Part shown: positions 9,374 through 60,723 of the stretch, piece after piece
Layout: each line of letters starts with the position of its first letter
Numbering within the stretch: the first letter of the stretch is position 1
Assembly: GCA_036172245.1 (NCBI GenBank)
Contig: JAYWIR010000022.1
Location: 3,162,001-3,222,723, forward strand
DNA length: 60,723 nucleotides
Reading direction: 5' to 3'
Source of the DNA: Raillietiella orientalis
Taxonomy: Eukaryota
Program-made: the position numbers and the translations under genes
The notes under the pieces: model-generated
Seen by the model: only the letters and a program-made list of their open reading frames with translations
The model's database searches: none
What the model was told of the DNA's origin: nothing

Positions 9374-11306
<1,933 letters not shown>

Positions 11307-33385: not shown

Positions 33386-33455
33386 AGTCTTGCGCACGGG
33401 CAGTATCGTAGGCGAGGAAGGTGACTGAGCCGCGATTATTGCTAGTTGAAAACTT
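33386..33455 (+). pseudogene. U4 snRNA 5' fragment (retrocopy) with 11-bp flanking direct repeat
   Basis: AGTCTTGCGCACGGGCAGTATCGTAG...GCGATTATTGCTAGTTGAAAACT matches the U4 5' domain; no Sm site follows; CTTCCTCCACA at 33376-33386 and 33453-33463. Confidence 0.85.
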
Positions 33456-33789
33456 CCTCCACACGCAACGTCGTCTACCGCAGCGAAGTTTCCAGCTTCG
33501 CGAAGAATCGACCCTGCTTCTTGCTGGATGAACGGCGCCCCATCGATCAGTGAGGCGAGTTCATCTTTCTCTCTCCTCCCCCTTCACCTCTCTGCTGACT
33601 GCGCGGTTCGCGCCAGAGATGCATCCTCCGGCTATTGGGATTCGAACTCTCAGCAGCACCCATAAAGATTCCCATGGCCCTCTCTCTAATCATCTTTTTC
33701 TCCTAGCCCTCAGATCTCAGAGTGTCGCAGAATCCGTCTGTTTTTTCTGGACCAGCACTCGCAGCAGCTTGCGTTCAGCATTTCGTGGA

Positions 33790-34379: not shown

Positions 34380-36555
34380 GAAGATGGAACGGCTGATTCG
34401 AGAAACGGAAGAGGTACTTGCCTCGTTTCGGTCAGCTAAAGTAAGGCTCCTCCCGAAAAGAGGAGGAGATCTACGTAACATCGGCAGCTGGCGACCGATT
34501 ATGGTAGTAAGTGCAGATGCTAAGTTTCTGGAGAAGCTGTGGTCCGAGAGAATCAGACGGGTGGCTGAAACGTTCATAAGTCCGGAGCAGATGTACACTG
34601 TTTCCGGCAGATCGATGGAATGTAACCTATTCCTCGAGAGGACCTGGCTTGCACTGATACAGCGGGGTGACTCAGCAGGACGAGGGAATCCTCGATTCCC
34701 CGCGAGCCAGGGACAGAGAGGTCCTCTGTCGGAGGAATGTCAGGAACTCTTCCGGTCGCGGTCGATCTGAGCCAAGAGTTCGACTGATTCGACCAGGAGC
34801 TCCTCTTAGAGATTCCAGAACGCTTGGGCTGGCCACCCGTATGACTTACTTGCGCTCCTACTGGCATGCTGCGCTGATAAACATCTCTGAAAGAGATGGT
34901 GCAGAGCAGAATTAGGCAGGGAGACAGCCTGAACCACCAGTGCTAAAGAGCACTTTCTTCGAGTTGGTGCTGAGGGAGTACAGGGTTACTTTGGCTACCC
35001 TTCCGAGCTCGTGCTCGGTACGTCTGTCGTGCTAGCCTATGCAGATGATGACCTCTTGCTGCTGCTCCTTAGGTCTGCCCCTGCGGACGGACTCAAGGAA
35101 TTCTATGAGCTATTAAGCAGAACAGGCATCGAGGTGAACAGAGAGAAGACAAGAGTGTGCCCGGTCGGCACGACGTGGTCTGGGCAGTTGGACTGGATCC
35201 GTTTAAGAATCCCCACAGTCCGGTACTTCAAGTACCTCGGCGTGCCTCTAGGGGACATTTCCTCTATGGAAGTGTGGTCGGGCTGCCTCCAGAAAGCAGA
35301 GTCGATACTCGGCCCGTTCCAAGGAGACAACTTCCGGTTTCCGGAGCGGGCCGTCATTTGGAACACTTTTGTGGCCCCTGTCCCCCGACTTCTGGGTTCT
35401 GTTTCACTTCCTCCCCCCGGTGTGGTGAAAAGGACGAAGGGTCTCCTTCGAAAATCCCTCTGGGCCAATAAGAGGTCCGGGGTCCGAGTAAAAGACTAGT
35501 GAGCTCTTCGTCGAGACGGAGGACTTGGACTCCTGACGTTGGAGCGCATGGAAGTTGAACTGAACTTTGCACAGAACTGGGCTACCCATTGGTGTGCCTC
35601 TGCACGTTCGCTCTCTTGGCTGGCGATCGGTGGCGAAGGACTCGCAACACTGTTTGCATGCCACCACCGCTGCCACCCATCTTGCGGCTTCCCATTCCGG
35701 TGTGTCGCTGCTCTGGCGAGAGCGAACACGTGGATTTCATGCCGCCTTGCGAACAAATCGGCCTGACGGCAGGAGAAAGTGAGGACGTGGGCCCAGCTCA
35801 CCCGGACCTTGCTGCCAGAAATTACCTTCTGCCGAGAGTTTCAGAAGAACGGAAGAACATTGGAGTAGTGGCTAATAAGCTGACTGTGCTAGCCTACCCA
35901 GCAGCCACCCCCTTCGCTGTCGCGATGTTCTTCGCTATCGAGTTACATGGCACCTGCCTACCAGCGAAGTGGGAGGTTTCCTGCGAGATCTCGGCCCCTC
36001 AGAAAGCCTGTCGCTGGCTGTACTACGCATCAACTGGCTGTCGCAACAGCAGCAACAACCGGTCCAAAGGACTGGAACGTTGGGACGAACTCTTCTCCAT
36101 TCAGCCCGAAGAGTTCGAAGTGCCCCCTGTGATTCCGGACAGTGAGCTGCTTCCCCTCAATTGGCAGCAATCGATGGCAGCTGGTACTGCACTGAGGTCT
36201 CCAGTGCAATACGCGCCGGCACCACTGGACGAGGGTAAGCTCATCGTCGAAGTGTGCCAGGTGTGGAGAGAAGGAAACCTTCCTCCACCTCATAGTGCAG
36301 TGTGTCGGTCTCCGGGAACTGTGGGAACGTTTCTCTGTGTCCCTTCCGCACTCCGTATACGATCCCAGAGACTCTTTGAGACCCCTCTTCGTGCGGGACG
36401 CCATGACGTCCGCAGCCGCAATCGCAGCGCTGTGCTGCGTCCGCGGTGTTGCGGCGAAGTGCGACGCCGAGAGAGGCCTGAGCGAAGGGGGGGCTGTCCT
36501 GCACGCCATCCACTTTCTGCAGATAGCTTCGAGATGGCCCCACCTGGAAGAATGA
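34380..36555 (+). mobile_element. L1/Tx1-like ORF2 remnant (RT plus zf-RVT), frameshifted
   Basis: LLPKRGGDLRNIGSWRPI, SPEQMYTVSGRS, LAYADD, FKYLGVP; ends RWPHLEE*; no terminal hairpin seen. Confidence 0.85.
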
Positions 36556-39500: not shown

Positions 39501-42500
39501 CCTTGGACAATTGATGGAGTTGGATTTTCTTTGTGGTATGTTTTTTTTTGGCAAGAGTTGTTTTAGGCGCTCGTTTTCCTGTTTGTTGAGCTGAAAGTAT
39601 TTGTTTTTGCATCTTATACCTCCTGGAACTTAATCGCAAACGATATTCTCCGTATGTTTCTCCAGATTCACAGTTTCAGTCCACTGACTTTCAAGTTCTC
39701 CATCTGTGCCATGCTTCTTAGTGCGGACCGAGTTACGTAACTTGAATTGCGTGTATAGAGAAAGGCTGTTGACTATACCCTGGATACCGCTGGCCAGAAT
39801 AGCGTTATGAGTCCCTGCATGTGAATTTCGAGAATAGCGACCATGTGTTCTGAGGTACCAATGCTTTGTGAGTGCATGTGAGAAAATGCATTGCTTGGGT
39901 TCTTAATTCGAAAATGCGTCTTTATTTCCCTTAGCCCATGTTGTATCTTGTGCTCTTGGTCTTTTTTGTCCCCTTGGCATATTTCGATCTACGGAACATG
40001 CTGTCGAATTATTTTGCCTAGAAAGTGAAATGCTTCAAAAATGCTTGTGGAATGTGAAGAACTCCTTGAAGTTAGAGAGCTTATCCGGCTGTTCGAAGAG
40101 TAATGAAAGAACATGTGATTATTTCCAGGGATGATGCTCCATCTGATTATTTTTATTTGACGTACTCAGTCATTAAAGAAGTTTTATTTCAGTGCAAATC
40201 ATGGTAATTAAGGATACGTATCGGCAACATTGTTTCTATCAGTCATAGTGAACAAGTGTTGAATTGGAATTCCTTCTGTGTTCATAACTGTGTATAACTA
40301 CCCTTGCGTTTATAGGAGCACTGTTTAGATTGCGGGACTTCCTTCCTTGAATGTGAGTTTAAAAAGGAGAAATATGAGACTGCACTTTAGGAAGATGCTG
40401 TAGTTGTGAATTTCGGGAACACAAAGTATCGTTGCTTTTTGCTTCGAAATGCTTTTGGCACTGGGGGGTGATTCGCTGTTGCAAGTGTAATCCAGAATTG
40501 TGAATAAAGCTGAGGTAACCCTTTTTACACTTCACCTTCTACTGAAAAAAGTCAGTGAGAAAGGAACAGGTTTAATATTTTCTGAACACCGTGACGTACG
40601 TATTTCTTACGAGATATGATGGTGGTCTAAACTCAGTGGAATGCTTCCAAGCTTCTAGACTATTTGGAGATTCCGAAACTCAGTTTCCAATAGGAGGACT
40701 GATAGTCAAGATTTCATGGAGCTCAGTTATCCAGGAAGCTGCGAAACGAACCATTTTCTTTTTTTGTTTATCTTTGTCGATAATACGCATGAACCCTAAT
40801 AGCTCGCATTGTAAACCATCTTGAAAAAGTGCAGGCGTGGCCCTTCGTTGATTTGGTCACACGTTCTACAAATGCTAAAAATAAGTAGTTCGTAGTTGCG
40901 ATCCATTTCTGAGTTGGACCATGGTCAGATGAATAGTACTGACCGTGGCAGCTGAAAAAAAGATTCCGAACTTGATGCTAACTGCATAGTGGGAAGCAAG
41001 CAGGCACGGACTGTCATTTGCAGAATGTTTCATTTTTGTTCTTTATGCAAGCTGCAAAATTCTTGGGACCATCTGCAGCCACTTCTTTGCAGAATAAAAC
41101 AGAAACCTCGTCTTCTGGATTGTTGTTTGAGGGTGAATTTCTGTACAAAGTGCAAAATGGAAGCTATCTTATATGTCGTATGGCGATCGTAGATTATACA
41201 GAAATCTGTGAAATTGAGAAATTGACAGATGAGTTCATTGCATGCAATTCTTGTGAGTAATGTAAATGTTCGAAACAAGCTTAAACATGAATAGAGACGT
41301 ACGTTTGCACGTTCGTGTATACAGTGAACACTTATCTGGTTGCCTGCTTTCTCACGTGATCTATTTTCTTGCAGAGAGCATAGCTTAGAAGGAATGGTGT
41401 TTGTATTGCTTGCTGCTTTTTGTATTGCTGTTTCTTTCTTGCTTCTTTGAATAGTACTCTTGGACTTATTCCTATATGCACTTTTAGGGCATAAGGTATT
41501 TTTGTCCATTGGATATCGCTGATGTTTCCTATTAAGAATGACCTAAGTTTTGAATTTCCTAGTATTAAGTAAAAATTGTTGGTATGCAGTGCTGAGCATC
41601 TTGCGAAGGAATGCATCTTGAATGGTTGCGGTTATTCGTTTCTTTGTTTTCATTGTTAACCTTAGTAAAGCAGGTGAGCAATACTGCAATAAACTACGTA
41701 GATCATGGTGAAATACAAACACAAGAAGTAAATTAAGCATGTTCATGCGATGCGAAGCATTTAGTCATGCAGGAAAAATTTGCTTTTTCCTGTACTACCT
41801 TTGCGTCAGGGAGCATGCAGTGTATACTTCCTTGAAACTGTTCCGATACATGTAACGTAAACCAACAAAAACTAAAGTTTGAAGTAGTTTCTGCTTTTGC
41901 AATCGTGGGCATGCCAATAGTGCGTGCAGTTTCGCCTCTGGGTGGGATAGATGCACGAAAGGGATGAACAATAAATGCACATACATGACAAGGTGTGGGT
42001 ATTTCATTCAGTTCATGCATACTATTTGTTCTACATTGTGTGAGATTTGACATGGGGGAGCTTTGCAGATAGGCAGCTTGCTTGAGACTCCAGAGGTATT
42101 TTGCAAAAGTTCTTTTGGTGCTACTGACTGCAGTCAAGTATCCAGTAGATTTGCCCAGGGTATGGGGATGGTTGATTATTTCCGGCAAGATCTGTCACCG
42201 TGACTCGATTTCAATAATTCTTAGACGTCTGTTTGCAGCATACTCAATCTAAATATTTTCTCAATAAATGCATGCATTCTCTCCCCCCTCTCCCTGCCCC
42301 CCCAAAACTAAAATACTTCTAATGGAATCTGTATCAGTCAGGCTCCGATATTCCTAAATCTGGCTCTAAATGCAGATGGGACTTTCAAATGGTCCAACTC
42401 ATTGCAGTTTTTAGAAAGGAGGCTGCTCCCTTCCTGAGAACTGCAGAAAGTTGACCTCCCTTCGCTGCATTCGAAACTGCAACACAAAGTACATTCACGA

Positions 42501-43069
42501 TGTAGCGGATGCAATGAACAACAGTAGTGCAACAGTGCAATGAACTCCACACGAAAGTCCGTCGTGTAGGGAAAAACGCCGTTGAAGATACAGAGGTGTT
42601 TGGATGCAAAATGCTGAAGCGAGCCTGAATATCATCATACGGCTTTGCTGTTTTTGTATTGGGGCTTCCCTCGAGGAGTTGCGCAGGCTTAAAGTAAAAA
42701 CGGAGGGTCCAAGAGGCCTCATGCTTTGGTAGCCGCGAGGACCAAGCCACTCCATCGAAGCCGACTGTTCTCGTAGCGAGAAGGCGGCTGCCGCTCACTA
42801 AGGCGTGCTCCATAATTTCGCCGCAAGGGTGAATCTTAAAAATTGGAGCTGGCTCTCCGTCCTCTCCAGCTTAGGGACTAGTCTACATACGCGGAATACT
42901 CAAGTTCTAGAGTCGAAATCTGGGCCTCCCTAACCTCACAGGGCTTTTCCGATGATGTCGTCGGTCCTTTTCTCGATGGTTGGAGGGGCAGGACAATGAA
43001 AGAGCAGGGAATGAAGGAGAGGAGAAGCAAACGCGTTGCAGATCGGGACTCTTTCCGGCAAGTGAATTT

Positions 43070-43690
43070 TTTTTTTAACAGTGAATTTTTATTACGTCAT
43101 TAATACACGTGTTTCCCTTTAATAAAGGGTTTTCTTTCACAAGAATGTTTAACAAATCACGTATCATAACAATACAACACGAACAAAACAGCACACAGAG
43201 ACATCAACATATACATAAACATAAATATAGACATAAACAAACATAAATAGGAACAAAAACAACCATTACAATAGCAATAACAAATACAAGGAAGCAACAC
43301 TAAACAAACACTATGGGGGGAAAGGGACATATCAGGGAACACCATTAGAGAGAGGCTAGTATAGCCATTCCTCCCCCGGATGGGCGATGCGAAGTCATCT
43401 TGCAGGACGGCAGAACACGGGTCGTCGATGCACACAAATATTTAGGGGGTAGGGTCTCGGCTTTGGGCTGGGGGAACCAAAGGAGGAGCTGACGATGGGA
43501 TTCCTATCGAAGGAGGAGTTGAGCAGGAGGAGGGTTGGCATCGGAGATGTGTTCAATGTATATGTCTCGTGAGCCCTTGATGGTTTGAAGTACGATGGCA
43601 GAAGATATCGATTTCAAGGCATGTTGAATTAGGCCAGCTTGTCTTAAGACTGGGTCATTGAGAGGATCTCAAGATCGTCAAGGGCTCCTA
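43070..43690 (-). mobile_element. 3' fragment of an RLE-type LINE with A-rich tail
   Basis: DPLNDPVLRQAGL...IKGSRDIYIEHI is homologous to 44240-44380; AATAAA and an A-run near 43065-43095. Confidence 0.7.
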
Positions 43691-43950
43691 GCAGAGAGTG
43701 AGCTTGTAGCCATGGACTGCATATGCTCGCAACTCCGCTTTTTCAGGGGGTGCTTCGTTCGCTGCTGCAGCCTTGACTACGGCCGCAAAACTTCGCGCCG
43801 GTGGCGAGGCAAAACCGGTAGAGATGGGCAGACCATCCAAAGTTGGAACTTCGTTGGAGGCTGCAGTCTTCACCTTCATCCTCTCTTGCGATGGCTTTAT
43901 GGTGTACTAGCAGTGACACGAGAACACAAGAAACAAGGCTCAAACACATG
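43691..43950 (-). mobile_element. 5' fragment of an L1/Tx1-like ORF1
   Basis: PARSFAAVVKA...AELRAYAVHGY resembles ARAWSAVVSA...AELSAYVEEGY of the ORF1 at 58879. Confidence 0.5.
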
Positions 43951-44029
43951 CTGTAAATCTTGTGCCCGCGTTTTCGCTGGCGCTTGTGTGTTCCTATGTA
44001 TGGATAGAACAGGTAGTAGTGTAGATAGG

Positions 44030-46800
44030 GTTCACTTGTGACGTTCGCAGCTCGGCTAGGATAGCGAAGAGCGAATCCTATTGCAGTGGTATGCTCCTCA
44101 TCAGTTAGAATAGCTCCACACGGGTCGTCGATTCCCACCAACTTAGGAGAATTGGGCATGGGTTGAAGACTAGGCACTTCGGAGTGAGAAGATGGATTTG
44201 GTGGGTGTGGAGGCAGAGCTGGGTCGTTTTCGATGTTTTTGAGGTATATCTCGCGCGACCCACTGATAACTTGCATCACATTTTGGGAAGCTATAGTTTT
44301 CACTTTACAGTTCGAGAGACCGGCTGCTCTGAGCACTGCATCATTGAGTGGATCCCAGTAGCCTAAGGCGCCGACTACAATGGCTTCGTTCAGCACTTGT
44401 GGTCCCTGGACTTGAAGGCTGCTTTGCAGCTCTGCGCATTTATTCTTTCTATGACGTGCACGCTTAAAGGAGACGGAAGGATTTTCATGTTACAAGGTCA
44501 ATTATCAAGGCGTGGGTTTGATCTTGTAGGAATATAACAGGTCGTAACGCTGACTCAGAGTTGGGGATTCTCTGATTACTGAAAGAAATCGGCCATGGGG
44601 AAGGAGAGTCTTTTAGGTTGCCTAAAATGAGATCATGTCTCTTTGTGATCCAAGTTTTAAAGTGAGCTGAGCAGTGACAGGACATAGGCGAGGGTTTCTT
44701 TTGGGTATACGCTGGCACTGTTCATTAAACCTAGGGCGTTTTCTATTCTTGTTAAGGGTAAGCTGATTCAGTCTCACCCTGTGTATAAAGCGTCAGTATG
44801 CAAACCTGAGAAACTTTCCAGCAGAAACGTTCTGTCCTCAATGAAGCTCATTGAGGCAGGATTAAGTACAATGCATTCAATCGATTTGCCCTGATCCGGT
44901 TTAGCAAGTAGAGGCTTTTTTATGGTCTCGAAGTAGCGATCGGATGGCTTTCGCAACTTAACGTCTCTTGGAGGAAAGGATAATGCGGGGGTTCTCCAAA
45001 TTGGAATTGTGCAGACGAAGAGCAATTTGTCCTTCTACTTAGTCCCATTTGACTGGGATCGTCTTAGCAATTGATCGGCACCTCGACCAGAGTTCTTGGA
45101 TCTCCACTTGGTTTGTCAAGGGGGGAAGTGTAGAGTCATTCAAATAATCAATTGCTCATTGTTTACCTACTTGGAAACGGGACTTCCTTTTGACTGCGTC
45201 TATTAAGGAATCCAGACAAAGAGAAGAGGTACTCTGGCCGGGACAGGTCAGCAATTTGAATACCGAGTCGATCAGCATAATTGTGGCTTCTTCCGAAACA
45301 GGCATTACTCCTAAGCAACCATCTTTGACTACCATACAGGTACTCCGTCGAGGGGGCTTGCCTAAGAGGAAGTATGTTCTGTTTGAGGGTGTTTCTGATC
45401 GACTTTTCGAATTTGACTTATTCAGGCAGGAGTTTTGTCCATTTTCAGGTCATGAGTAAGGGATGGTAAGAAAAAGAGTTTAATGGCTTCGAGTTCTTGC
45501 CTGGGCGCGAGTTGGGAGGACGCAATTGATCCGAATTTATCAAGGAATTCGAAGACGTCGCCAGCGTAGAATGTAGGGTCAAATCCAACGGGTGTACCAA
45601 GGTATTTATAGGTCGCATGCGCTTGGAGAGCAGGAAGATTTTCACCATATATGGAGATAGACGTCGGCAAGACTTGAGGAGAGGCGATGTAATTAAAGGA
45701 TCCGCATATTTGAGCATTGACTTGGAGACCTAGTTGGGCTGCAAAATTACAGATGTGAGTAACTGCAATTTGAAGTTCTTAAAAGCAGTTGCATATAAGA
45801 GCAGTATCGTCCGCATACGCGAGTGGAGGTAAGTAAAGGAAACAGCTCTCAACTGATATAAGTAGAGGCTTGATAGCGAGCTTGAATAAGAGTCCACTAA
45901 GGGGGCAATCCTGTGTGACGCCGGTGTTAATCGCAACTGGGTCACTAAGGTCATTCATTCCACAGATAGCGGTGGAGGAAATCATATATAGGTCCTTAAT
46001 GATGTCCATAAAGTCGCAACCTAAGCCGGAGTATTGCAGTGCTCTAAGGATTAGTTGGTGAAGAATTGAAGAAAAGGCATCCTTGGAGTCTAGTCATCAT
46101 ACAATGTTGTGTGAACCCTGGCTTTCTCCAGCAGATTGGCGAGTAGAAAGTTCTGTTCTAGCACACCGTCAAAGGGCGGCAACCCTTTTTGGTGTGCGCC
46201 AAGGACAGAATTTTCTAGAATCCAGGAGCGGAGTCGGCTTGCGAGTAATTTACACTAAAGTTTTCCAAGCGTACAGCTGATTGAAATGGGGCGGAATTGG
46301 GAGATATCGGGAGAGGAGGACTCGACCTTTCGGATGAGCACTGTTCTTGATGTTTTCCAAGAGGGAATCCTATTGTGTCGTAGACACAGGGAAGCACTGA
46401 ACACTAAGGCAAGGCAAGTCCCTGATAGGTCAGTCTTCCTCAATACAGAGTAAGGAATGCTATCTTTACCAGGACTGGAGTCGGGAGCAAACCTGAATGT
46501 GCACATTACCTCTTCTGTGGTACTCCTTGATAAGTTGCAGTCAATGGGTGGAGGAGGGAAGGGAAGAGTGTCAAATAGCGATAGATTGCAGTCTTTGGAA
46601 ACTTTTCAGAGAAAAATGAGTACATTTCACTAGAGGAACCGTTAAGCTCAATAGGATTGGGTAGAATAATTGAGCGTATCACTAGCTTATTGTTCCGTCG
46701 GTATAAAGCCTGTAAATTACGTAGTGGGGGATCGACCTTGTGGCTTCAAAGTGTAAGATCGGATGAGAAAATGGGACTGGAGTGTTCACCATACCATTAA
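44030..46800 (-). mobile_element. RLE-type non-LTR retrotransposon (NeSL/Utopia/R2-like), degenerate
   Basis: SSPGKDSIPY, FRPISI, TGVTQDCPLSGLLF, LAYADD, YKYLGTPVG, KRHDLI, LIIDL, VVGALGYWDPLND in the expected order, with frameshifts. Confidence 0.85.
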
Positions 46801-48140: not shown

Positions 48141-48147
48141 GCCTTGA

Positions 48148-49600
48148 CACCTGGATATGCCGGGGCATTTATATATGAAAAAATAAAAACACAAAGAATT
48201 GTCGCGTGGCGAACCCGAAGGTCCACCACACCAAAACAGCTTGCTGCTTTCCGACGCTATGCCGGCGAGGTCCTTCCGATGCGCGGGGATGGGAAATAAA
48301 AAACAAAAAGAAACAAAAAGTTCAAATGTGTGGGGGGGGAAAACAAATGTTATAGGGGTGGGAGGGCGGGGAAGGAATCACTTTGCGCTTGGATAGGTCC
48401 TCTAGATCCTATTCAGGATCCGGACAAGCTGAGCCCTGTCTGCGCCTAAGTGGCGCCACTTGCAGACACTGCGCGCGAAAAGGCGAGTCCAGTGTAAGGC
48501 GTTGCCGGTTGGCTGACGCCTTCTTCTGGTGGCGTTCCAAGCCGCCACTATTCCTCGGATGCAGCAGAGGACTGCTACACTAGCGGGCGGGGACAAGGCG
48601 TCACGACAGAAGAGGCGCCTGATAACGTCCTTTGGGCCGCATCCGCGCAAGTCCAGGATCGCCGCAAGACGATCCCACAAAGGGCGGAGGGCGCTACACT
48701 CAAGAAGAAGGAGGGGGAATGTTTCCTTTTCCCCACACCGGTCGCAGTTAGGATCCACAGCCCCCCGGGTGGTGTGATGCAGGCGTGCTTTGAATGGTAA
48801 TCCCCAGAGTACCACAAGGAACGCCACATCCTGCCATTTCAGGGGGAGGGAGCCACTGTTCCAGGACACTGGGAGCCACTTCATCTTCTCCGGAGATAGT
48901 CCGAGTAGCTCGACCCAGCGTCGAATTCCGTTGGGCGGGTCACTCGGCGTCGCAGCATTTGTTGGCTGCCGAGATGTCCACGCCTTTATCGTTTGTGTCC
49001 TGCCGCCTATGGTGCAGGACACGGTCCATTTACCCTGCTCGCTACTGTCCCAGGCATTTATAAGGAAGGGCACCACTGGGGCAAGGGGGGTAATGTGAGC
49101 CCACAGAAGCTTATCGTGGAACTGCACGATCTTCTGCAGCGTCCAGCGGGCGTGGCTTTTTAGGCCAGTGTTCTTTGTGCCCGCCGGAACGTGGATCTTT
49201 TCCCAGGTGGAGACTGACTCATGCAACCATGCAGAGGAGTTCCCTGGGAGGCAGGAGATATAGGTGTTCTCCCGTGCCACAACGGCCATTCGTCGCAGGT
49301 GAAAGTCGTTGTGTGCTTTCCTGCGTTGGCACACCAACGGAAACGACAAAAGTCCGCCGGATCCGAAGGCTCGTTGGGTCAGGAGGCGTGCTGGGACGCA
49401 CCAGGGCGTGTCCCACAGTTCTGCCGCGAGGGCGAGAGTCCTAAATGGAATTTGCACTTCCATGCGCTCCAGCGTAAGAGCGCCAAGTCCACCATCCTTG
49501 CGTGGATAGCACAAGTCTTTGAGTCTCACACGGGACCTCCCTTTGCCCCAAAGGACTGTCCTCAGGAGACCCGCTGCTCTTTTACGGACAAAATGAGGAC
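48148..49600 (-). mobile_element. 5'-truncated L1/Tx1-like element fused to virus-like segment 3
   Basis: ORF 48402-49529: RKDGGLG...VDPNCDRCGEKETF; terminal motif at 48148-48172. Confidence 0.85.
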
Positions 49601-50969
49601 CTTAGAGCAGAACGCCTCCCACTCAGGGGAGAAGTCTTATTTTGATTCCACAGCCTGTTGCGACGTGTGGGGATAAGCATAGCGTTGACTTTGGATATAC
49701 GTTTAACATAAATGATCCCAAACGTTCGAGGGTAGAGTCTGCGTCTGAGTCATTAAAGTTGGTTCTACGTTGCCCAGTTATGTAACGAGCATTAATGTGG
49801 TGGTGCATCTCATTTAACATAATGCCCGCATAGGCTTCGCCCAGAAATATCATTTTCGATCTCTGGGCAGTTGGCAGCTTGTGCCCAGTTTACCAAGCGT
49901 TCAAACGCTTCGTAGGCCACAGCATGCCTATGAGTGCCTGCGAGTGCCTACGAGTGTCTCCACGTGGAGACAAAAACCTCAAAAGTGCGTCTTGGGAAAT
50001 CGTTACGGGCTTAAAGGGTGGACCATGCACAGTTAAGAGGACAGACTGAATCATATGCGTAAAGCCAGCTAATTCTAATACACGTAATGTGCTACATAAA
50101 TGTCCGAGAGTGTGAGCTACGTCCATGCCCTTTTCCTCCGACAGGGGAGACCGGGCAAACAACGACCGCCACACTTAAAGTGGATAGCCAGCACCCCTTG
50201 TGCTGTCTTTTCTGACTCCTGTATGGTGATTCGTTAGCCACCACGACACTTTAGTCGCGATGACTAGTACCATACAATTCGTGGAAAGCTGTTGGTTCAA
50301 TGCTGCCTGACTTGAAGCTCTCTGCGCGGATGTTAGATCATAGCTCTGTGTAGTCGGCCTCCAATCGCCGTCTGGTACAAGCACCCCGTTGACTGATCGA
50401 TATCGCACCATGTCGTACGTGAGCAGTGCATGGATTCCATTAACCATGAATGTAAGTTGAGCATCCTTGAATTGTTTCGAGCTGTATAACCACCCATTGG
50501 CTACAGCTGCCATGTTCTTGATGGATACTCTCGAATTTGTGGGTTGGTACACAGGTAAACGCTTATCTTCTGGGAAATCTATGTCAGTTCCAGTATTCAA
50601 CCCGATCTCGATATCTCCATGGAGATCAGGGAGGCTGTTACTGTATTCCTCGAAAGTGGACACAAGTTCATCTTCACTAGCTGCAGCCATTACATACTAA
50701 GTCAAGTACTACCTGAGGTGAGAAAGAACATTAGCATCTTTTGCAAAGTCACATGCCTACCCTATTAACCCCAATTGCCATGCATGAACCATAACATGTA
50801 CATTCCCAGCACTCGACTTCCATTATCACAGTCTATAAACATGCTTATCATGCCTATAAGGGTCCCGGGGTCTACCTGGCCACTGTGATGTTGGACCGAG
50901 TCAGTGTTGATTTTTCATTGATGATGAAGGCTGTGATCCCACTCCTTCATTTTACGACGTAGAACCCTC
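49601..50969 (-). pseudogene. Putative endogenous viral element, nucleoprotein-like segment copy 3 (CDS from 50690; disrupted, 3'-truncated)
   Basis: Homologous to copies 1 and 2 (IATKVSWWLTNHHTG, HTLGH, HINARYITG); intronless; stops and frameshifts. Viral assignment is from recalled motif similarity. Confidence 0.6.
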
Positions 50970-51323: not shown

Positions 51324-53010
51324 CAGCCACGCCATCGCAAACCACACCTTGTGTTCCATCGACTGCCTATATGTGAGTGACCCAATAAACTACACACACA
51401 AAATCCAACAAACTTCATTCATACAATATTAACATATACAGTCATGAACACAGAGTAATGGCACGATATAGGGAGGGCGATCACTTTTTTATTGCATGGG
51501 CTCGGCCGCAGGCAGAACTTACTCGTGTTGCCTCAGCCTAATGGCTCGGGGAAGCCTATGTTCAAATGTCCTGATCGCCTCATATAGCTTTGTTCTTATG
51601 CCTGCTATGCGATCAGTCCCTAGGGTAGGAGTGATCATCTCTATTGTCTTGAGTGAAAGTTCTTTGGGGAATTTGGAACAAAAGGCTTCCCACTCAGGGG
51701 TGAAGTCCTCTTTAGATTCTACAGCTTGTTGTGACATGCGGGGAGAGGCACAACGTGGATTTAGGATACACATTTAACATGAATGATCCTAAACGTCCAA
51801 GGGTGGAATCAGCATCCGAATCATTAAAATTGGTTCGGGCTTGACCGGTTATATATCGTGCACCAATATGGTAATGTTTCGCATTCAGCATTATTCCCGC
51901 ATAGGCTTCCCCCAGGAATAGCATATTTTCAATCTCTGGGCAATTGGCCGCTTGTACCCAGTTGACTAAGCGCTTGAACGCTTGATAGGCAACCGCATGC
52001 CTGTGGGTGCCGGCGGGTGGTGACAAGAATCTTAAGAGTGCGTCCTGCGATATTGTAACGGGCTTGAAGGTTGGCCCATGCACAGTCAAAGGGATAGATT
52101 GTATCATTTGTGTGAAACCAGCCAGTTCGAGCACATGCAACGTGCTACAAAAGTGCCCAAGCGTGTGAGCAACATCCATTCCCTTTTCTTCTGATGAGGG
52201 AGATCGGGCAAATAGCGAACGCCACACTTTAAGCGGGTAACCAGCACCTCTTGTACTGTCCTTACGTACACCGGTATGGTGATTGGTTAACCACCACGAC
52301 ACCTTAGTTGCGATAACCAACACCATACAGTTTGTAGCAAGCTGCTGGCTGGCTGGATGCCCTTTGTGCGGAAGTCCAGTCGTAACGTTGTGGAGTTGGC
52401 CTCCAGTCCCCGTCTGGCACAAGTACTCCATTGACGGATCTAAATCTTATCATGTCATATGCCAATAATGCGTAAATTCCATTTATCATTAGGGTTAACT
52501 GGGCGTCCTTGAATTGCTTTGAACTATAAAGCCACCCGTTAGCCACTGCTGCTATGTTCTTAGTAGTCAATCTGGCATTAGTGGGTTAATGTATCGGCCA
52601 ACGCTTATCCTCGGGTAAGGCTATGTCCGTCCCAGTAGTCAGCCCGATCTCAATGTCCCCATCAAGATCAGGGAGACTGCTACTATATTCTTCAAACGCA
52701 GCTGCAAGCTCATCCTCACTCGCTGCAGCAATATTGCACCGGAACAAGTACTACCTGAGGAAAGAAAGTGCATCAACACTCATTGTAGAGACATATTCCC
52801 ACCCCATTTCCCCCAGATACCATGCATGAACCATAACATGCTCATCTCCAGTATTCGGCTTCCACTATTACAGTTCATATACATGCTCAGCATGCCCATA
52901 AAAGTTATGGAGTCTACCTGGCTACTGTGATATTGGATCGAGTTCGTATTGATATTCGGATGATTTTTAAAGCGATGATCGCACTCTCTTATGTTACGAC
53001 GAAGAACCCT
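51324..53010 (-). pseudogene. Putative endogenous viral element, nucleoprotein-like segment copy 2 (~1.7 kb with UTRs; CDS ~52730-51490, disrupted)
   Basis: FEEYSSSLPDLDG, TKVSWWLTNHHTG, SPPAGTHRHAVAY, YHIGARYITG; start codon lost; frameshifts. Confidence 0.6.
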
Positions 53011-53040
53011 CAGGTATTATAGCGGGAGATTGAAATTTGT

Positions 53041-53849
53041 CACCCGGTCACGCCGGGGCGTTTATTAATAATAAGAAACCGGTCAGGGACAATGTCCCCA
53101 ACCAACAGAACGACAGGGAACAGAAAGGAATTACCGGCACGCAGGCCTGGCAAACAAACCGCTTGCAACGTGGGAGGAATGAGGGGAAAACAAACAAAAA
53201 TCAAAAACTGGAGGGAAGGGTAACGGGTTTTTGGTTAGGATCCGTACTCACGGGGATTTAAACGGGGAGCACCTGAAATGTTCCGGAGCCTATGGGGATG
53301 CGGATGTAAAAAGAAAATACAAAATTAGTTCATGGAGGGTAGGGCAATGATCACTGGGTTGGTCGCTGCTGAGCTTGTGTAAACCGGCGGTGTATTTCGG
53401 CGAGATTCCTTCTTGACTCCTGTCAAATGAGGCCATGTAGCGGCTGCTTCCATGTAGAAGGATGCTTTGCCGATTACCTCTTGGTGCTGCCCGTTGATTA
53501 CCAACGCCTGGCGGACTGAAACTATCGCGCGTATGCAACCGATGGTTGCAATCCTTGCGCTTAGGGACAGACCGCTCGGCGTGAAGAATCGTCGCAGCAA
53601 GTCTCTTGCGGTGTCCACGGGATGCATTAGTGCTGTTGCCAGCCTACGCCACGGTCCTTGTAGGACACCGCAGTCCAGAAGTAGGTGTGGGATCGACTCC
53701 GTCGACCCGCATCGAACGCAGTTCGCAGATGCAAGTTCCCCGGAGTCTCGATGCCAACGCTCGTTGCACTGAAAACCCCAGTGAACGAAAAGCAGCACGG
53801 CTTGTTTCCAAGCAAGGGGGAGCAGCGAACTGTCAACACTGTGAAAAAG
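53041..53849 (-). mobile_element. 5'-truncated L1/Tx1-like element fused to virus-like segment 1
   Basis: HWGFQCN...NCVRCGSTESIPHLLLDC; terminal motif at 53041-53066. Confidence 0.85.
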
Positions 53850-55622
53850 CAGCCACGCCATCGCAAACAAAACTCTCGGTTCCACCATCACGATATTATA
53901 TCTGAAATGATAACAATAGATAAGTGAAAAACCACTGTCAGTACTGTATGCCCTTTATTATCACGTAATTACAACTTAATCCATACAGACTAATAACAAT
54001 AATGATACAATCAACAATAACAACTGGAACCACATCCATTCTGGTTGTACATTGCAGGTCAAATGTAATCTTGCACTTAAACTGGCTCAGCAGCTGGGAT
54101 AATTTCCTCATGTGGTTGCACATCATGTAACTGGGGCATCCTCTGCTCAAATGCGCGAATCGTCTCATACAGCTTGGTACGTATCTCTGCTACTTTGTCC
54201 ACTCCGGGTGTTGGTAAGATCATTTCTATGGGCTTCATGGCTAACTCTTTGGGAACTTTTGCATAGAAACCGTCCCACTCTGGGGAAAAATCTTTGGATT
54301 CAATAGATTGCTGAGTCATATGGGGGGATGAACACAAAGTAGACTTAGATTAAAGGTTCAGCATGAAAGAGCTTAAGCGTCCTAGGGTACAGTCCGCATG
54401 AGCATCATTAAATACACGCCTGGGCAAACCAGTTAAGTATTTTGCTCCGATGTGATACATTTTCGAGTCCAGCATTATATTGGCATATGCTTGCCCCAGA
54501 AAGATCATGTTTTCAATTTCCGGGCAGTTTCCTTCTTGTGCCCAGTTTACCAGTCTTCGAAAAGCCTGGTACGCCACAGCATGCCTGTGGGTACCGGCTG
54601 GTGGTGATAGAAATCTAATCAGAGCATCCTGGGAAATTATTAGTTCTTTGAATGGCTCTCCAGTTATATGCAAAGGATAAGTCCGCACAAGTCCAACAAA
54701 TCCAGCTAACCTAAGCACCTCTAATGTGCTAGCAAAATGCCCAAGTATGTGAGCAGTCTCCATTGCTCTCTCTTCTGACACTGGAGACCTACCAAATAAA
54801 GCTCTCCATACTTTCAGAGGGAAGCCTGCGCCTCTCGAGCTATCGCGCCTTACACCGGTATGATGGTTTGTTAACCACCAGGATACCTTGGTGGCAATAA
54901 TCAACACCATCATGTTGTTAACCATTTGTTGATTAATAATCGTAGGGGCAGCTGATCTTTGTCCAGGTGTAGTATCATGCCGAGTGGTGATCACTTTCCA
55001 ATCTCCATCTGGGACCAGAGGCTGACCTTCACCTTCTCTCTTGAATCGTATCAAGTTATAGGTGAGCATACCATACACCTTATTCATCATCATGGACAAA
55101 GGGGTGTCTTTATATAACTTCGTAGAGTGTATCCAACCGTTAGCAACTGCGGCTATATTCTTTATAGTAGCTGTTGCATCAGTTGGTTGGTATATTTGCA
55201 GTTTCTTATCGTCAGGTAACGCAATGTCCGTACCAGTCGTAAGCCCAAGCCCGATATTCCCATCTAGGTCAGGCAAACTGGCACTATATTCTTCGAAAAC
55301 ATTGGTAGGAACCTCTGGATTTGTGGTAGCCATTTTATCGTAGATATGTAGCAACCTACAGTGAGAGAGATCTGGTTAGATTACATAGGATAATAAGGAT
55401 ATTCCCCCCTAAAATCCACAAAACCCAACATTGTGCTCATGCAGGTGATTGAGGCCAGGTGTTTCATGCAGTTAGTGACTGTTATCTGACAGCACTTTCA
55501 CCACACTTATGGAAATACCTGGTTGTCCTGAGTAGCCTCTAAGATGAACGAGGGTTCTGACATTTCGATAATAAGCTGTAGGGTATGGATAGTATACGAC
55601 GACATACATTCAAGGGGGGTCG
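53850..55622 (-). pseudogene. Putative endogenous viral element, nucleoprotein-like segment copy 1 (~1.8 kb; CDS 55333-54077, ~420 codons, one frameshift near 54350)
   Basis: ORF 54350-55354 continues in the 54077-54337 frame. Intronless, with a composition unlike the flanking LINE. Motifs ATKVSWWLTNHHTG, PPAGT and YHIGAKYLTG resemble, as recalled, qinvirus-like segment-2 proteins. Confidence 0.6.
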
Positions 55623-55630
55623 GAGATTGA

Positions 55631-55699
55631 AGTTTTCAACTAGCAATAATCACGGCTCAGTCGCCTTCCTCGCCTATGATACTGCCCGTGCGCAAGGCT
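55631..55699 (-). pseudogene. U4 snRNA 5' fragment (second copy)
   Basis: Reverse complement AGCCTTGCGCACGGGCAGTATCATAG...GATTATTGCTAGTTGAAAACT is nearly identical to 33386-33454. Confidence 0.85.
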
Positions 55700-55740: not shown

Positions 55741-55858
55741 GAGATTGAAGTCTCCCGCTATCAGGTGAGCCTTTCGCACGTTTGTGTCCGCCAGCCAGTT
55801 TCGTTTTAGGGTTTCCAGCAACCTGGTACGGTCGGGATAGCCCTTTTTCCCGCTGAGT
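55741..55858 (-). mobile_element. Short APE-domain fragment ending at the GDFN motif
   Basis: Reads RLLETLKRNWLADTNVRKAHLIAGDFNL, paralleling FFGEVQSHWLNNSGPQVPHLVAGDF at 50975-51050. Confidence 0.7.
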
Positions 55859-57706
55859 TCACACCCGGATGTGCCGGGGCATTTATTTCATGGAAATAAA
55901 AATACATTAAAATGTCGCGTGGCGAACCCGAAGGTTCACCACTCCAAAACAGCTTGCTGGTTGCCAGCTCTATGCTGGAGAGGTCCTTCCGATGCGCGGG
56001 GATGGGAAATAAAAAACAAAAAGAAACAAAAAGTTCAAATGTGTGGGGAGGGGAAAGCAAATGCTATAGGGGTGGGAGGGCGGGGAAAGGATCACTTTGC
56101 GCTTGGATAGGTCCTCTAGATCCTATTCAGGATCCGGACAAGCTGAGCCCTGTCTGCGCCTAAGTGGCGCCACTTGCAGACACTGCGCGCGAAAAGGCGA
56201 GTCCAGTGTAAGGCGTTGCCGGTTGGCTGACGCCTTCTTCTGGTGGCGTTCCAAGCCGCCACTATTCCTCGGATGCAGCAGAGGACTGCTACACTAGCGG
56301 GCGGGGACAAGGCGTCACGACAGAAGAGGCGCCTGATAACGTCCTTTGGGCCGCATCCGCGCAAGTCCAGGATTGCCGCGAGACGATCCCACAAAGGGCG
56401 GAGGGCGCTACACTCAAGAAGAAGGAGGAGGAATGTTTCCTTTTCCCCACACCGGTCGCAGTTAGGATCCACAGCCCCCCGGGTGGTGTGATGCAGGCGT
56501 GCTTTGAATGGTAATCCCCAGAGTACCACAAGGAACGCCACATCCTGCCATTTCAGGGGGAGGGAGCCACTGTTCCAGGACACTGGGAGCCACTTCATCT
56601 TCTCCGGAGATAGTCCGAGTAGCTCGACCCAGCGTCGAATTCCGTTGGGCGGGTCACTCGGCGTCGCAGCATTTGTTGGCTGCCGAGATGTCCACGCCTT
56701 TATCGTTTGTGTCCTGCCGCCTATGGTGCAGGACACTGTCCATTTCCCCTTCTCGCTACTGTCCCTGGCGTTCACAAGGAAGGGCAGCACTGAGGCAAGG
56801 GGGGTTATCAGAGCCCACAGAATCTGGTCGTAGGACTGCACCATTTCCTGCAGCGTCCAGCGGGCGTGCCTTTTCATACAAGTGTTCCTTGTGCCCGCCG
56901 GAACGTGGATCTTTTCCCAGGTGGAGACTGACTCGTGCAACCAGGCGGAGTAGTTCCCTGGGAGGCAGGACATCCAGGCGTTCTCCCGAACCGCAACGGC
57001 CATGCGTCGCAGGTGAGAGCCACAGTGCACTTCTGCCGACGAGCGCCAACAGAAACGACAAAGATCCGCCGGCTCGTTGGGCCAGGAGGCGTGCTGGGAT
57101 GCACCAGGGCGTGTCCCACAGTTCTGCCGCGAGGGCGAGAGTCCTAAACTGAAGTTGCATTTCCATGCGCTCCAGCGTAAGAGCGCCAAGTCCACCGTCC
57201 TTACGTGGAGCGCACAAGTCTTTGAGCCTCACACGGGACCTCCCTTTGCCCCAAAGGACTGTCCTCAGGAGGCCCACTGCTCGTTTTCGAATAAAATGAG
57301 GGGCGGGGCACACAAAAAGTAGAAGGCGAAGGAGGGGGCCGCAAACGCGTTCCACACCGCGGCCCGTTCCTGCAAGTAGAACTTGCCTTCTTGGAACGGA
57401 CCGATCGCCAAGGCTGCCTTTTGGAGACGTTCGGATCAGACTTTCGCTGCGCAGAAGTCCCCCAACGGTACGCTGAGATACTTGAAGCACCTGCTCGTGG
57501 GGATCCCCAAGCGGATCCAGTCCGACCGTCCAGCCCACGCCGAACCGACAAAGACCATGGACGACTTCGCCCTGTTCACCTCCAGGCCCGTCCCGCGGCG
57601 CAGCAACTCGAAGAAGTCCTCGAGTGCACTCGCCGGGGTGGACCCGGGAAGCAGCAGCAGAAGATCGTCTGCATAGGCCGACACGGCAGGCGTGCCGGCA
57701 CACGAG

Positions 57707-58590
57707 CTCGGCAGGGTTGCCAGAGATACCCTGTATGCTCTTAGCGCAGTAGATGCTGGAGACCGGAGTAGATGCTGCAGCTGTGCATGTATATGGCGCC
57801 CTTCTTGAGGTAGAGAAATTTGGCAAATGTGGTTTTGCCGTGTCCACCTTCGGGGTCGAAGAACCAGTATATTTTTCTGACGTCAGGGGTTGTTCTTATA
57901 AGTTTTAGTATGTCTATCTGCCATGTACGAAGTTGGAGTCCAGCCATGGGATTTGGATGTAATCGGCTTCTTGTTAATCGGAAGCATTCTTTGACGAAGT
58001 TTATGTTTTTGCTGTAGAACTTCGTATGGTTTTCCAGGATGTCAAGCTCTGTTGCTCCGTTTTTAATTTGCTGGAGAATCTGGAAGATATTGGAATTATT
58101 ATCATAATATATTATAATTACCATGTCCTGGTAGTCGGTCGTTTCTTTGTGTTGTTGTAATAGGCCGTATGTCCACGCTTCCTTATCTTCTTTTGTGCAG
58201 TACCGTAAGTTGCTTTCGGGTGATCCTTTTGCTCGTTCGAGATGTGCTTTGTCGAATGGCGGTCTTTTGAGGCTTGGCAAGGTTCGTGGATCGCGTAACT
58301 GGAAATAGCCTTGCAGGTGAGGTGTTCCAGTGGAAGCTGTTTCCTTGCCGATGACTGCATAGGTACATTGGCGTCTGCACCATTCTTTTATCTGTTGGAG
58401 TTCTTCTTCGATGTAATTGCATAGTGTGAAACACCAATAGAGAAAGTGTCCGTAGGGCATGATGTCTTCAGAAATTCTGTCGAGGTGAGACTGGTGTATG
58501 CCTCATTGTGTGGTGGTATATATACTTGGTAACTCGGCAGGGTTGCCAGAGATACCCTGTATGCTCTTAGCGCAGTAGATGCTGAAGACC
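57707..58590. repeat. 58-bp direct repeat of LINE sequence flanking the Rep insert
   Basis: 57707-57764 and 58533-58590: 52 bp identical (CTCGGCAGGGTTGCC...GTAGATGCTG), then one mismatch, then AGACC. Confidence 0.9.
57765..58460 (-). pseudogene. rep: CRESS-DNA-virus Rep (HUH endonuclease plus start of SF3 helicase), nanovirus/circovirus-like, 3'-truncated
   Basis: RCR motif I WCFTLCN, motif II PHLQGY, motif III YCTKE, Walker A IYWFFDPEGGHGKTT; the sequence breaks off before Walker B. Confidence 0.92.
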
Positions 58591-58878
58591 AAAGGGCTCA
58601 GGCTTTCACCCTGCCGTATGCCGCGGCGCACAGGCACACCGTACACTTGCCGGCCGCTGAAACCAATGTTGATTATCGCGTTGCGCCAGCAGGAGCGCAT
58701 GTAGGAATGGAGCACGGCCGGCAAACCCATGCGTTCCAAGAGCTCCAGAAGGAGTTCCCGATCTACGCAGTCGAACGCCTTGTGCTCTCTAGGGTGGACG
58801 CGTTTTCTCGGTGCTCCTCGTGCCAGGAAGTCTCCCCCAGTGCAAGCGTCGTGTGGTTCGGTGGTCGATCAGGCAGCG

Positions 58879-59916
58879 ATGCCTGACGCGACCACCAGGG
58901 ATGGCCAGGGGGCAGCGGCAACGCTGGCCCCAGAGGCGATGGAGAGCCAGGAGGCGGCGGCAACGTCGCCCCCGGAGGCGATGGAGGTGGGGGCATCCGG
59001 CCCCACAGAATCGGTCCCCGCTGCAGCGCGGGCGTGGAGCGCCGTTGTGTCGGCGCCATCACCTGCAGCCGCGGCGGAATTGTCGGCCTATGTAGAGGAG
59101 GGGTACAACCCCTCATTGTTCTACAAGGTAGGCAATTTATATTCTTTAGAGAGCGCGCGCGCCTTCTCGAAGGGCATGCGCGCTCTCGATGTAAAAGAGG
59201 AGGAGCTTAGCGCTATGACCATCCGCAGCGGGGGTCAGTACGTTGAGGTCATCTGCAAACAAGCAGAGCTGGCCCAACGACTGCTTAAAACCCCCGTTGT
59301 GATGGGGACGCGCAGGCTCCTCCCAACTACGGCGGACCGCAGCATGGTGGTCCACCTGTTAGGCGTGACCGCGCGAATGCGCAAAGAACAGGTTCGCGCC
59401 GCTTTGGAACAGTTTGGAAGGGTCCACGCGCAGTGGACGAAAGTTAGTCCTTTCGAGGACTACACGGGGCTGCAACACGGCCTCACTGCTGCGCGCGTGA
59501 CCGTTCGGGAGGGCTGCACTCTTCCCCACTAACTGGTGGTCGAAGGCGAAACCGTCGACCTCTGGTATGTGGGGAAGCCGAAATACTGTGGCTTCTGCAA
59601 TACGTCGGGCCACCTCAAAAAGAGGTGTCCCAATGTGCAGTGCCAAGTATGCGGCACAATGGGCCACACGAGGGAGGTGTGCTCAAAAGCAGCAGTGCGG
59701 GTGGTTTCCAAGAGAAACCTTAAAAAACGCGCCCGGCTTCTGCAGAAAAGGCTGGCGGCGAAAGCTGCCGCGAAGGCTGTGCCAATCGCGCCCAAGACCC
59801 AGGCCGCACCCGTGACCCCGGCGACCAACGCCGAAAAAGTTGAGGGAGACGCCCAGGAGACTGGGTGGCAAGTGGCAGCGGACAAAAAATCAAAGAAGGA
59901 GAGGAGGATGGAATAG
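58879..59916 (+). mobile_element. L1/Tx1-like ORF1 (Gag-like, two CCHC zinc knuckles) with an internal stop at 59530-59532
   Basis: CGFCNTSGHLKKRC and CQVCGTMGHTREVC; WSAVV motif; RRM-like VRAALEQFGRV. Confidence 0.85.
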
Positions 59917-60276
59917 AAAATCGCCTACCAACAGAAGAAGAAAGAGCAGGGTAGCGCGATAATTAAAAAGTGCAGCGTCGTTGTCGAACGCGTTCTCGAT
60001 GTTGCCGAACGCTGCCGGAAAGAACTCGCCGCTACCGACGACCTCCCCTCTGTTGACACAGTCAACAGTGAGGTGAGCGAGCCGGCGGCGGCGTACGTCA
60101 TCGACACCACCATCGATGACGTAGCCTTCGCGCGAGCCGCGGAGGAGCTGGCAGCCTCGTTCCAGCCAGCCCCCTCCGCGGCCAGTTGGAGGACGTGTTT
60201 TTCCTTCACTCCCCAAAGAGTAGTAGGAAAGCGCTTTTTCTTCTGTGTGGTGTTTTGTGTACATCGTCGGTGTCCA

Positions 60277-60723
60277 ATGGCCACAACGCCAGAGGACACC
60301 GCGATGGAGGTGGGAGTGGGGGAGGATAGTTCGCCCCCACAGCCTACTGGAGCAGGGGCAGCCGCCCCGGAATCATCCCCGGCCACGCCGAGGACATGGA
60401 GCGCCATGGTGGCCGCGCCCAGCGCAGAAGCCATGGCGGAGATGGCCGCATAAAAGGCCTCCGGGTACTAGCCATCGCTTGTCTACCAGGTAGGCAACTT
60501 GTTCGACGGCCGGACAGCGCGCGCCTTCAGCAAAGCGTTGAAGGACGCGAATGTTAATGAGAAGGATCTGGACGGCCTCTCCGTCCTCAGCGGCGGGCAG
60601 CGGGTCGAGGTGGTCTGCAAAGATGTCACCTTGGCTCACCGCCTTATCCATGCGCCGCTGAACGTAGACGGCCGCAAGATCCTGCCAGTATCTATGGACC
60701 GCTCCGTGGTGGTCCACATGACT
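60277..60723 (+). mobile_element. Second ORF1 copy (related subfamily, with stops), running off the window end
   Basis: TWSAMVAAPS...PSLVYQVGNL...SGGQRVEVVCK...DRSVVVH is colinear with 59030-59357. Confidence 0.8.

Follow-up and report, generated by a model that had tools for sequence, protein, structure and literature searches.

The DNA considered here, referred to as the window, is a stretch of 60,723 nucleotides from Raillietiella orientalis (assembly GCA_036172245.1, contig JAYWIR010000022.1, positions 3,162,001 to 3,222,723 of the forward strand). Towards its end lies one copy of a non-LTR retrotransposon (LINE), truncated at its 5′ end, which runs on the minus strand from ~58790 down to 55857 and which is split by a piece of a viral Rep gene. 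This insert (57765-58532, 768 bp) has a GC content of 0.434, the LINE that flanks it having 0.586 on one side and 0.585 on the other. A 58-bp stretch of RT sequence is found at each of its ends, the two copies being identical at 57 of the 58 positions (57707-57764 and 58533-58590; blastn E 3.5e-23). The preliminary description of the sequence, which had recognized an AT-richer insert of about 770 bp between 58-bp duplications of the RT gene, was therefore correct on this point. It was correct also in giving Rep the orientation of the LINE, since the RVT_1 matches to the left and to the right of the insert lie on the strand that encodes Rep. The features of the locus are collected in Table 1.

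Table 1. Features of the Rep-bearing LINE copy and of its surroundings (window coordinates).
Feature	Position	Strand	Remarks
LINE 3′ part	55857..57706	-	RT motif C (YADD) onward, C-terminal domain, 3′ UTR; one nonsense codon and two frameshifts
Left 58-bp copy of LINE RT sequence	57707..57764		probably derived G at 57759; 8-nt deletion common to both copies
GG, no template assigned	57765..57766		between the left 58-bp copy and the filler
11-nt templated filler AGTAGATGCTG	57767..57777		exact re-copy of LINE bases 57748-57758
Open fusion frame	57741..58502	-	253 codons and a stop: leader, Rep 1-227, 26 codons from filler and LINE
Rep codons 1-227, divergent CRESS-DNA virus	57780..58460	-	HUH endonuclease domain, linker, Walker A; ends before Walker B, motif C and arginine finger
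Rep motif I	58413-58430	-	FTLCNY
Rep motif II	58308-58322	-	PHLQG
Rep motif III	58188-58202	-	YCTKE
Rep Walker A	57828-57848	-	GGHGKTT
In-frame 42-nt segment	58080..58121	-	19% GC; starts GTAATT, ends TTCCAG; missing from 10 of 10 aligned homologues
Viral upstream region, 72 nt before the Rep ATG	58461..58532	-	TATA, initiator-like element, upstream ATG
TATA box TATATATA	58517-58524	-	the insert has no other TATAWAW on the Rep strand
Initiator-like CCAGTCT	58488-58494	-	A at 58492, 32 nt past the first T of the TATA
Out-of-frame upstream ATG	58504-58506	-	upstream of the predicted transcription start
Right 58-bp copy of LINE RT sequence	58533..58590		probably ancestral A at 58585; same 8-nt deletion
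LINE 5′ part	58591..58790	-	RT motifs A-B, same 5′-truncated copy; upper border approximate
Qinvirus-like EVE candidates (three)	49574-50654, 51669-52735, 54155-55339	-	55-78% amino-acid identity among copies
LINE 3′-end 29-nt motif	48144-48172, 53037-53065, 55858-55886		79-90% alike; in two cases a qinvirus-like unit lies closely downstream

The surroundings are crowded with mobile and viral sequences. Pieces of LINE occupy much (about half) of the region from 47 to 60.7 kb, and between 47060 and 58868 nine named elements (five LINE pieces, three qinvirus-like EVEs and Rep) all lie on the minus strand, an arrangement that resembles, by analogy, a one-strand trap of the piRNA-cluster kind. The three qinvirus-like copies are homologous to a protein of Hubei qinvirus-like virus 1 annotated as hypothetical (E 5.4e-28) and also to uncharacterised proteins of an ant and of a sea spider, and they are probably, from these similarities, EVEs of a negative-strand RNA virus; they gave no match in Pfam, the PDB or the Protein Atlas. 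Only copy C keeps a long open frame (54350-55336). No LINE duplication was found flanking any of the three. Copy A (window 49560-49680) is cut at about residue 318-343 of ~375, at the place (~49598) where a LINE paralogue begins in the same orientation, so that virus and LINE either form a chimera at this joint or meet there because the LINE was inserted into the EVE.

On the other side of the Rep-bearing LINE, from 58790 to 60723 on the plus strand, two ORF1-like LINE frames with CCHC knuckles (~58879-59916 and ~60270-60723, 47.5% identical over 141 residues) stand head-to-head with its truncated 5′ end, which could reflect an inversion of the twin-priming type or a nested insertion. An inverted repeat of 71 nt, 94% identical, one arm of which (55629-55699) separates the 3′ end of the LINE from qinvirus-like copy C, the other lying at 33386-33456, may be a short mobile element. 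Farther away, AT-richer DNA contains an exon of a papain-family protease, a fragment of a host gene (9445-9912, minus strand; Peptidase_C1, 2.7e-6), and a weak match, below the cut-off, to the insertion domain of ribosomal protein P0 (20364-20822, plus strand; 8.8e-4, 19.6 bits against 29.1). Four open frames of 153-248 codons, devoid of Pfam matches, are found at 41030-44489 on the minus strand, with an internal repeat at 43528-43668; the one at 43743-44489 had no match in the Protein Atlas.

The viral part of the insert is read from the minus strand, where a frame remains open for 253 codons (58502..57741), with the Rep ATG at 58460. Its product matches the Pfam family Viral_Rep (PF02407) over ORF residues 22-105 with an E value of 8.7e-16 and 58.4 bits for a cut-off of 26, and the RCR motifs I-III and the Walker A that had been noticed at the outset could all be located on that strand. 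The motifs FTLCNY, PHLQG and YCTKE, which we take to be HUH motifs I-III under their customary names and consensus, fall on the columns T12, N15, Y16, P47-Q50, Y87, C88 and K90, invariant among 11 sequences. In the alignment with ten homologues Rep retains every invariant column, and departs at a single position, 14, among those conserved at 90% or more. Homology stops at residue 227, while all ten homologues run on for some 50-140 residues, and 13 queries recovered no further piece of Rep, the C-terminal one included, elsewhere in the window. Of an SF3 helicase only Walker A is present, the rest being cut off. Judging from its sequence, this Rep is thus a fragment of a member of the CRESS-DNA virus Rep family, not a whole gene, and the truncated product is predicted to be one that cannot work as a helicase.

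The relatives of this fragment are distant. When 1.84 billion representative proteins were searched, 8884 homologues reached E<=1e-3, just one of them below 1e-30, and no closer viral relative was found; the best identities are 36-38% over Rep residues 8-227 and 46-48% over the endonuclease domain alone, with 47-49% over the first ~90-100 residues across the searches made. INPHARED added three unclassified viruses at 27-38% identity. Among the homologues listed, the contigs measure ~0.9-4.9 kb and are mostly near 2 kb, the size of a CRESS genome. In the PDB, endonuclease domains match residues 6-110 with E values between 1.3e-14 and 3.1e-10, the circovirus-type Reps 7kii (1.3e-14), 2hw0 (2.2e-10) and 7lar among them, which have the HUH endonuclease domain in common with the present Rep. 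At this level the match is confined to the N-terminal domain, the helicase of the fragment breaking off past Walker A; matches to the nanovirus domains 6h8o and 2hwt are weaker (~3e-5 to 5e-5). By these comparisons the source virus is a very divergent CRESS-DNA virus lineage, without a close relative in the representative proteins. The in-frame segment of 42 nt may be an unspliced mini-intron or an insertion in the linker.

The 72 nt that precede the Rep ATG bear on the nature of the molecule that was copied. When 200,000 random 72-mers of the composition of the insert were drawn, a TATA turned up in 3.8% and a TATA followed by a correctly spaced initiator in 0.15%, and by our reading a TATA box lies 31-46 nt before the Rep ATG in five of seven related viral loci. 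Measured against the usual consensus and spacing of promoter elements, the region looks like one that includes a putative Rep core promoter, as the spacing of its motifs suggests. If this reading holds, the insert comprises the TATA and ~40 nt of DNA upstream of the likely transcription start, that is, untranscribed DNA, which makes an ordinary Rep mRNA an unlikely source; the source looks like viral DNA, not a canonical Rep mRNA.

Another reading was tried for the same edge. The four outermost bases of the insert are TTAC, and in three related viral loci (L001, L002 and L004) an origin nonanucleotide motif lies 85-160 nt before the ATG, on either strand. On this reading TTAC would close the nonanucleotide, the 13 nt beyond it would form one arm of its stem, and copying would have halted at the site nicked by Rep. 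The partner of that stem is absent from the insert, and two extra bases still need explaining. The TATA and initiator give a better fit, and we rated the origin proposal below them. An exact scan of IMG/VR with the 18-nt edge of the insert gave no match.

We may now turn to the junctions, described along the plus strand. On the left, LINE sequence continues to 57764 and is followed by GG, by the 11-nt re-copy at 57767-57777 and then by viral sequence, the border between filler and virus being placed to within ~3 nt. The 11 nt are an exact second copy of bases lying 19 nt upstream (57748-57758), the GG separating them from the left 58-bp copy, and are for this reason to be seen as templated filler rather than as microhomology between virus and LINE. 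The extra copy seen in the preliminary description is therefore real, lying at 57767-57777 and not at 57768-57778, while its interpretation as microhomology has to be given up. On the right, viral base 58532 abuts LINE base 58533 with zero shared bases, in a blunt join. The sole mismatch between the two 58-bp copies opposes G57759 on the left to A58585 on the right, and because the LINE paralogue at 1470-1760 carries A at this position, the A of the right copy is probably the ancestral state.

This paralogue and another at 34890-35180, on the reverse strand, both diverged, span the insertion point and have an empty site, with one contiguous copy each of the 58 bp. They retain 8 nt that are absent from both 58-bp copies of the Rep-bearing LINE. 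The first of them reads SPLLFSIFFELVLRAYR...YADD in a single frame, whereas in the Rep-bearing LINE SPLVFSIY and LRAYRVSLATLPSSC...YADD lie in separate frames. Since the frameshifting deletion is found in both copies of the duplication, the RT gene was already broken when the duplication arose. Further lesions of the same LINE, namely a nonsense codon at ~57436 and two more shifts of frame, at ~57300 and ~57030, bring the count to four in ~2.1 kb, against none in the 0.7 kb of Rep, a difference that is not significant (P ~0.25 by estimate for equal ages). The 3′ end of the LINE is devoid of poly(A) and carries the terminal 29-nt motif common to three copies in the window. A third paralogue (48287-49598), the one that meets qinvirus-like copy A, is 93% identical to 56000-57301. 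As to the clade of the LINE, a protein search with the C-terminus of the RT returned no match.

With a structure of this kind one must ask whether a chimeric read or a faulty assembly could have joined contaminating viral DNA to that of the host. In one public read run, matched by a small share of words, contigs were obtained on the LINE flanks alone (57521-57729 and 58574-58731), with none over the insert or its joints, an outcome that counts neither for nor against the insert. Against it, the viral sequence is continuous on both sides with the RT sequence of one and the same LINE copy, only a fragment of the virus is present, and a 58-bp duplication with a mismatch, together with templated filler, is not a product of ligation or assembly chimeras. 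An artefact is hence very improbable, and we take the insert to be a genuine endogenous viral element.

The event is also recent, as had been proposed from the open frame. If neutral decay proceeds with one indel for every ten substitutions, a frame still open together with at most one difference between the repeats has a joint probability of 0.29 for a divergence of 1%, of 0.058 for 2% and of 0.004 for 3.5%. Under this model the insertion is young, with a neutral divergence of ~2% at most.

How did the viral sequence enter? The structure is that of a copy-choice insertion. The account that we favour, tentatively and at slightly less than even chances, is that viral DNA was inserted by copy-choice at the level of DNA into a LINE copy that was already dead. 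A polymerase synthesizing the plus strand of the window over the LINE would have stopped after 57764, slipped back and re-copied 11 nt, and would then have switched to Rep-sense viral DNA, copying it from the Walker A region to 72 nt upstream of the ATG. It would finally have returned to the LINE template 58 nt behind its point of departure, generating the flanking duplication. Viral DNA would have served as the template, whether as the single-stranded genome or as a replicative form, and the enzyme would most likely have been a replication or repair polymerase of the host, engaged in synthesis resembling MMBIR/FoSTeS or that of polymerase theta, the LINE being an innocent and very abundant target. 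The viral identity, the boundaries, the duplication, the filler, the empty site and the earlier frameshift are observed; the succession of copying steps, the preference for DNA over mRNA as the source and the choice of polymerase are what we infer.

Short exact re-copies taken from nearby are a signature of polymerase-theta end joining and of MMBIR junctions, which the filler may resemble. Retention of the intron-like segment of 42 nt, capture of promoter-like DNA, prior death of the LINE and abundance of the target all speak for copying at the DNA level; LINE debris is so abundant here that insertion into a LINE requires no special explanation. Other features go the opposite way. The orientation common to Rep and LINE would arise only half the time by random capture of DNA, and a 58-bp flanking duplication is unusual for simple end-joining capture. 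The viral piece, moreover, has a complete 5′ end and a truncated 3′ end, the shape that a polymerase would give it by copying a linear Rep-sense template right to the end. A random fragment of a ~2-kb circle would begin within ~150 nt upstream of rep in ~7% of cases, by our estimate. The flanking duplication and the filler templated nearby, which are what copy-choice leaves behind, are compatible with an RT too.

This brings us to the main competitor, a template jump of the LINE RT during target-primed reverse transcription, which we regard as a serious though less likely possibility. In this scenario the RT would have left the LINE RNA after 57764, stuttered, and gone over to a viral nucleic acid of Rep sense, be it a long or non-canonical viral transcript or single-stranded viral DNA, which it would have followed as far as the 5′ end; once back on the LINE RNA that it had left, it would have taken up synthesis 58 nt behind and ended ~260 nt further on (5′ truncation), so that a LINE-Rep-LINE chimera would have resulted from one retrotransposition. 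Such a course accounts at once for the shared orientation, for a viral part complete in 5′ and cut in 3′ after which the LINE resumes upstream, and for the intact 3′ end of the LINE with its terminal motif. LINEs lacking poly(A) are of the type mobilised via a 3′ tail, which implies that defective LINE RNAs may be used in trans. The 93% paralogue that abuts, at ~49598 and in sense orientation, the 3′-truncated EVE of an RNA virus suggests that LINE-virus chimeras may arise in this host genome. Elsewhere, LINE chimeras are strongly biased towards the sense orientation and template switching has been described (bioRxiv 10.1101/2025.02.02.635956), and Rep EVEs embedded in LINE-1 are reported for carnivores (PMC6372831).

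Several observations weigh against the RT jump. The LINE RNA would have carried an RT frameshifted by the 8-nt deletion, present in both copies, contrary to cis preference. The putative TATA box with the ~40 nt upstream of the likely start, and the intron-like segment, do not point to a processed Rep mRNA. No TSD was found around the whole LINE copy, in that 55780-55870 and 58760-58920 have no word of at least 7 nt in common, a trace that neighbouring insertions may have erased; and the return junction shows no microhomology. Among the traits of a LINE chimera, the locus does have a foreign part in sense orientation joined to a 5′-truncated LINE with an intact 3′ end, but its template RNA would not have come from a competent element, and its foreign part does not look like a transcript. 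When the preliminary description proposed that the RT had left its template and returned ~58 nt back, it thus captured a geometry that fits the structure, and the LINE RT that it named as the enzyme is not supported as stated, in view of the shared frameshift, of the TATA with its ~40 nt, and of the abundance of LINE debris.

Repair at a staggered break had been offered as the alternative to that jump. An event at the level of DNA is indeed, in general, at least as likely as a jump of the RT, while the specific form in which a double-stranded viral fragment is captured between nicks 58 bp apart on opposite strands, with fill-in of the overhangs, end joining and filler added by an error-prone polymerase, is rated lower than the RT jump and seems improbable to us. 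It would explain a duplication that flanks the insert exactly, as with any staggered cut, filler at one junction with a blunt join at the other, and the inclusion of putative promoter DNA in a LINE already dead. It has to cope with the fact that a duplex of 58 bp between two nicks would not separate unaided, and that end-joining captures usually delete bases of the target instead of duplicating them. DNA-repair capture is among the routes proposed for non-retroviral EVEs (Thézé et al., PMC4231630); around 54 EVEs of an isopod, the same authors saw no obvious TSDs. No sequence feature here separates this capture from replicative template switching.

A last route, retrotransposition in trans, would have the LINE machinery nick an old LINE copy and prime on a viral transcript, the cut of the second strand, 58 bp away, yielding a long TSD. 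It provides for the flanking duplication, and LINE-mediated endogenization with TSDs is accepted for some EVEs of RNA viruses (work cited in PMC4231630). The insert, however, has no 3′ tail, neither the poly(A) nor the tail of a LINE: it ends in Rep codon 227/228, within the helicase domain, and is followed by filler. The absence of any tail makes this route unlikely, as do the LINE family of the host, which has a conserved 3′ motif and no poly(A), and the putative promoter. We give it hardly any credence.

It is instructive to set the favoured reading, copy-choice on DNA, beside known systems. FoSTeS/MMBIR and polymerase-theta insertions duplicate the copied sequence, re-copy bases from within 20 nt, and use little or no microhomology. 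The flanking duplication and the short templated re-copy found here are alike, with the difference that the inserted template is an extrachromosomal viral genome; we know of no described case of the FoSTeS/MMBIR type for a CRESS virus, and a literature search for a CRESS-virus case of replicative template-switch insertion found none. Chimeric LINE retrocopies of the U6/L1 type (bioRxiv 10.1101/2025.02.02.635956) fuse foreign sequence, in sense, to the 3′ part of a 5′-truncated LINE. They differ from the present locus, where the LINE resumes upstream with an overlap of 58 nt, where the foreign part comes from a DNA virus and bears a putative promoter, where the LINE template was already frameshifted, and where no duplication was found flanking the whole unit.

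EVEs derived from the Rep of circular ssDNA viruses occur widely among eukaryotes, and most of them are rep fragments from lineages that belong to none of the named families (Liu et al. 2011, PMC3198968). The element described here resembles them in being a truncated Rep fragment of such a virus in nuclear DNA; it is unlike them in its two readable junctions, its 58-bp duplication, its templated filler and its putative captured promoter. In carnivores, Rep EVEs embedded in LINE-1 were amplified along with it, (Dennis et al. 2019, PMC6372831); the link to the LINE explains later copying there, not entry itself. For the isopod with 20 circovirus-like EVEs, Thézé et al. (2014, PMC4231630) report no obvious TSDs.

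The kind of element found in Raillietiella is therefore already known, and what gives the case its value is that the junctions can still be read and that the Rep is so divergent. Rep-derived EVEs are common, but the route by which they entered is almost never readable, their junctions having decayed. Here both junctions are fresh, with a duplication of 58 bp, a templated filler, an empty site in the paralogues, and a frameshift that places the death of the LINE before the event, and this freshness makes the choice between a jump of the RT and copy-choice at the level of DNA an answerable question. The Rep itself marks a lineage of CRESS viruses, adjoining three qinvirus-like EVEs within a one-strand cluster of LINEs and EVEs. 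Were it the case, as we hold less likely, that a LINE RT in the middle of retrotransposition copied the nucleic acid of a DNA virus to its end and came back to its own RNA 58 nt behind, an open, truncated and promoter-bearing Rep would thereby have been added to LINE pieces and RNA-virus EVEs that form a cluster on one strand. The cluster would then act as a trap, driven by LINEs, in which RNA viruses and DNA viruses alike are recorded, and antisense small RNAs or a dominant-negative Rep could arise from it.
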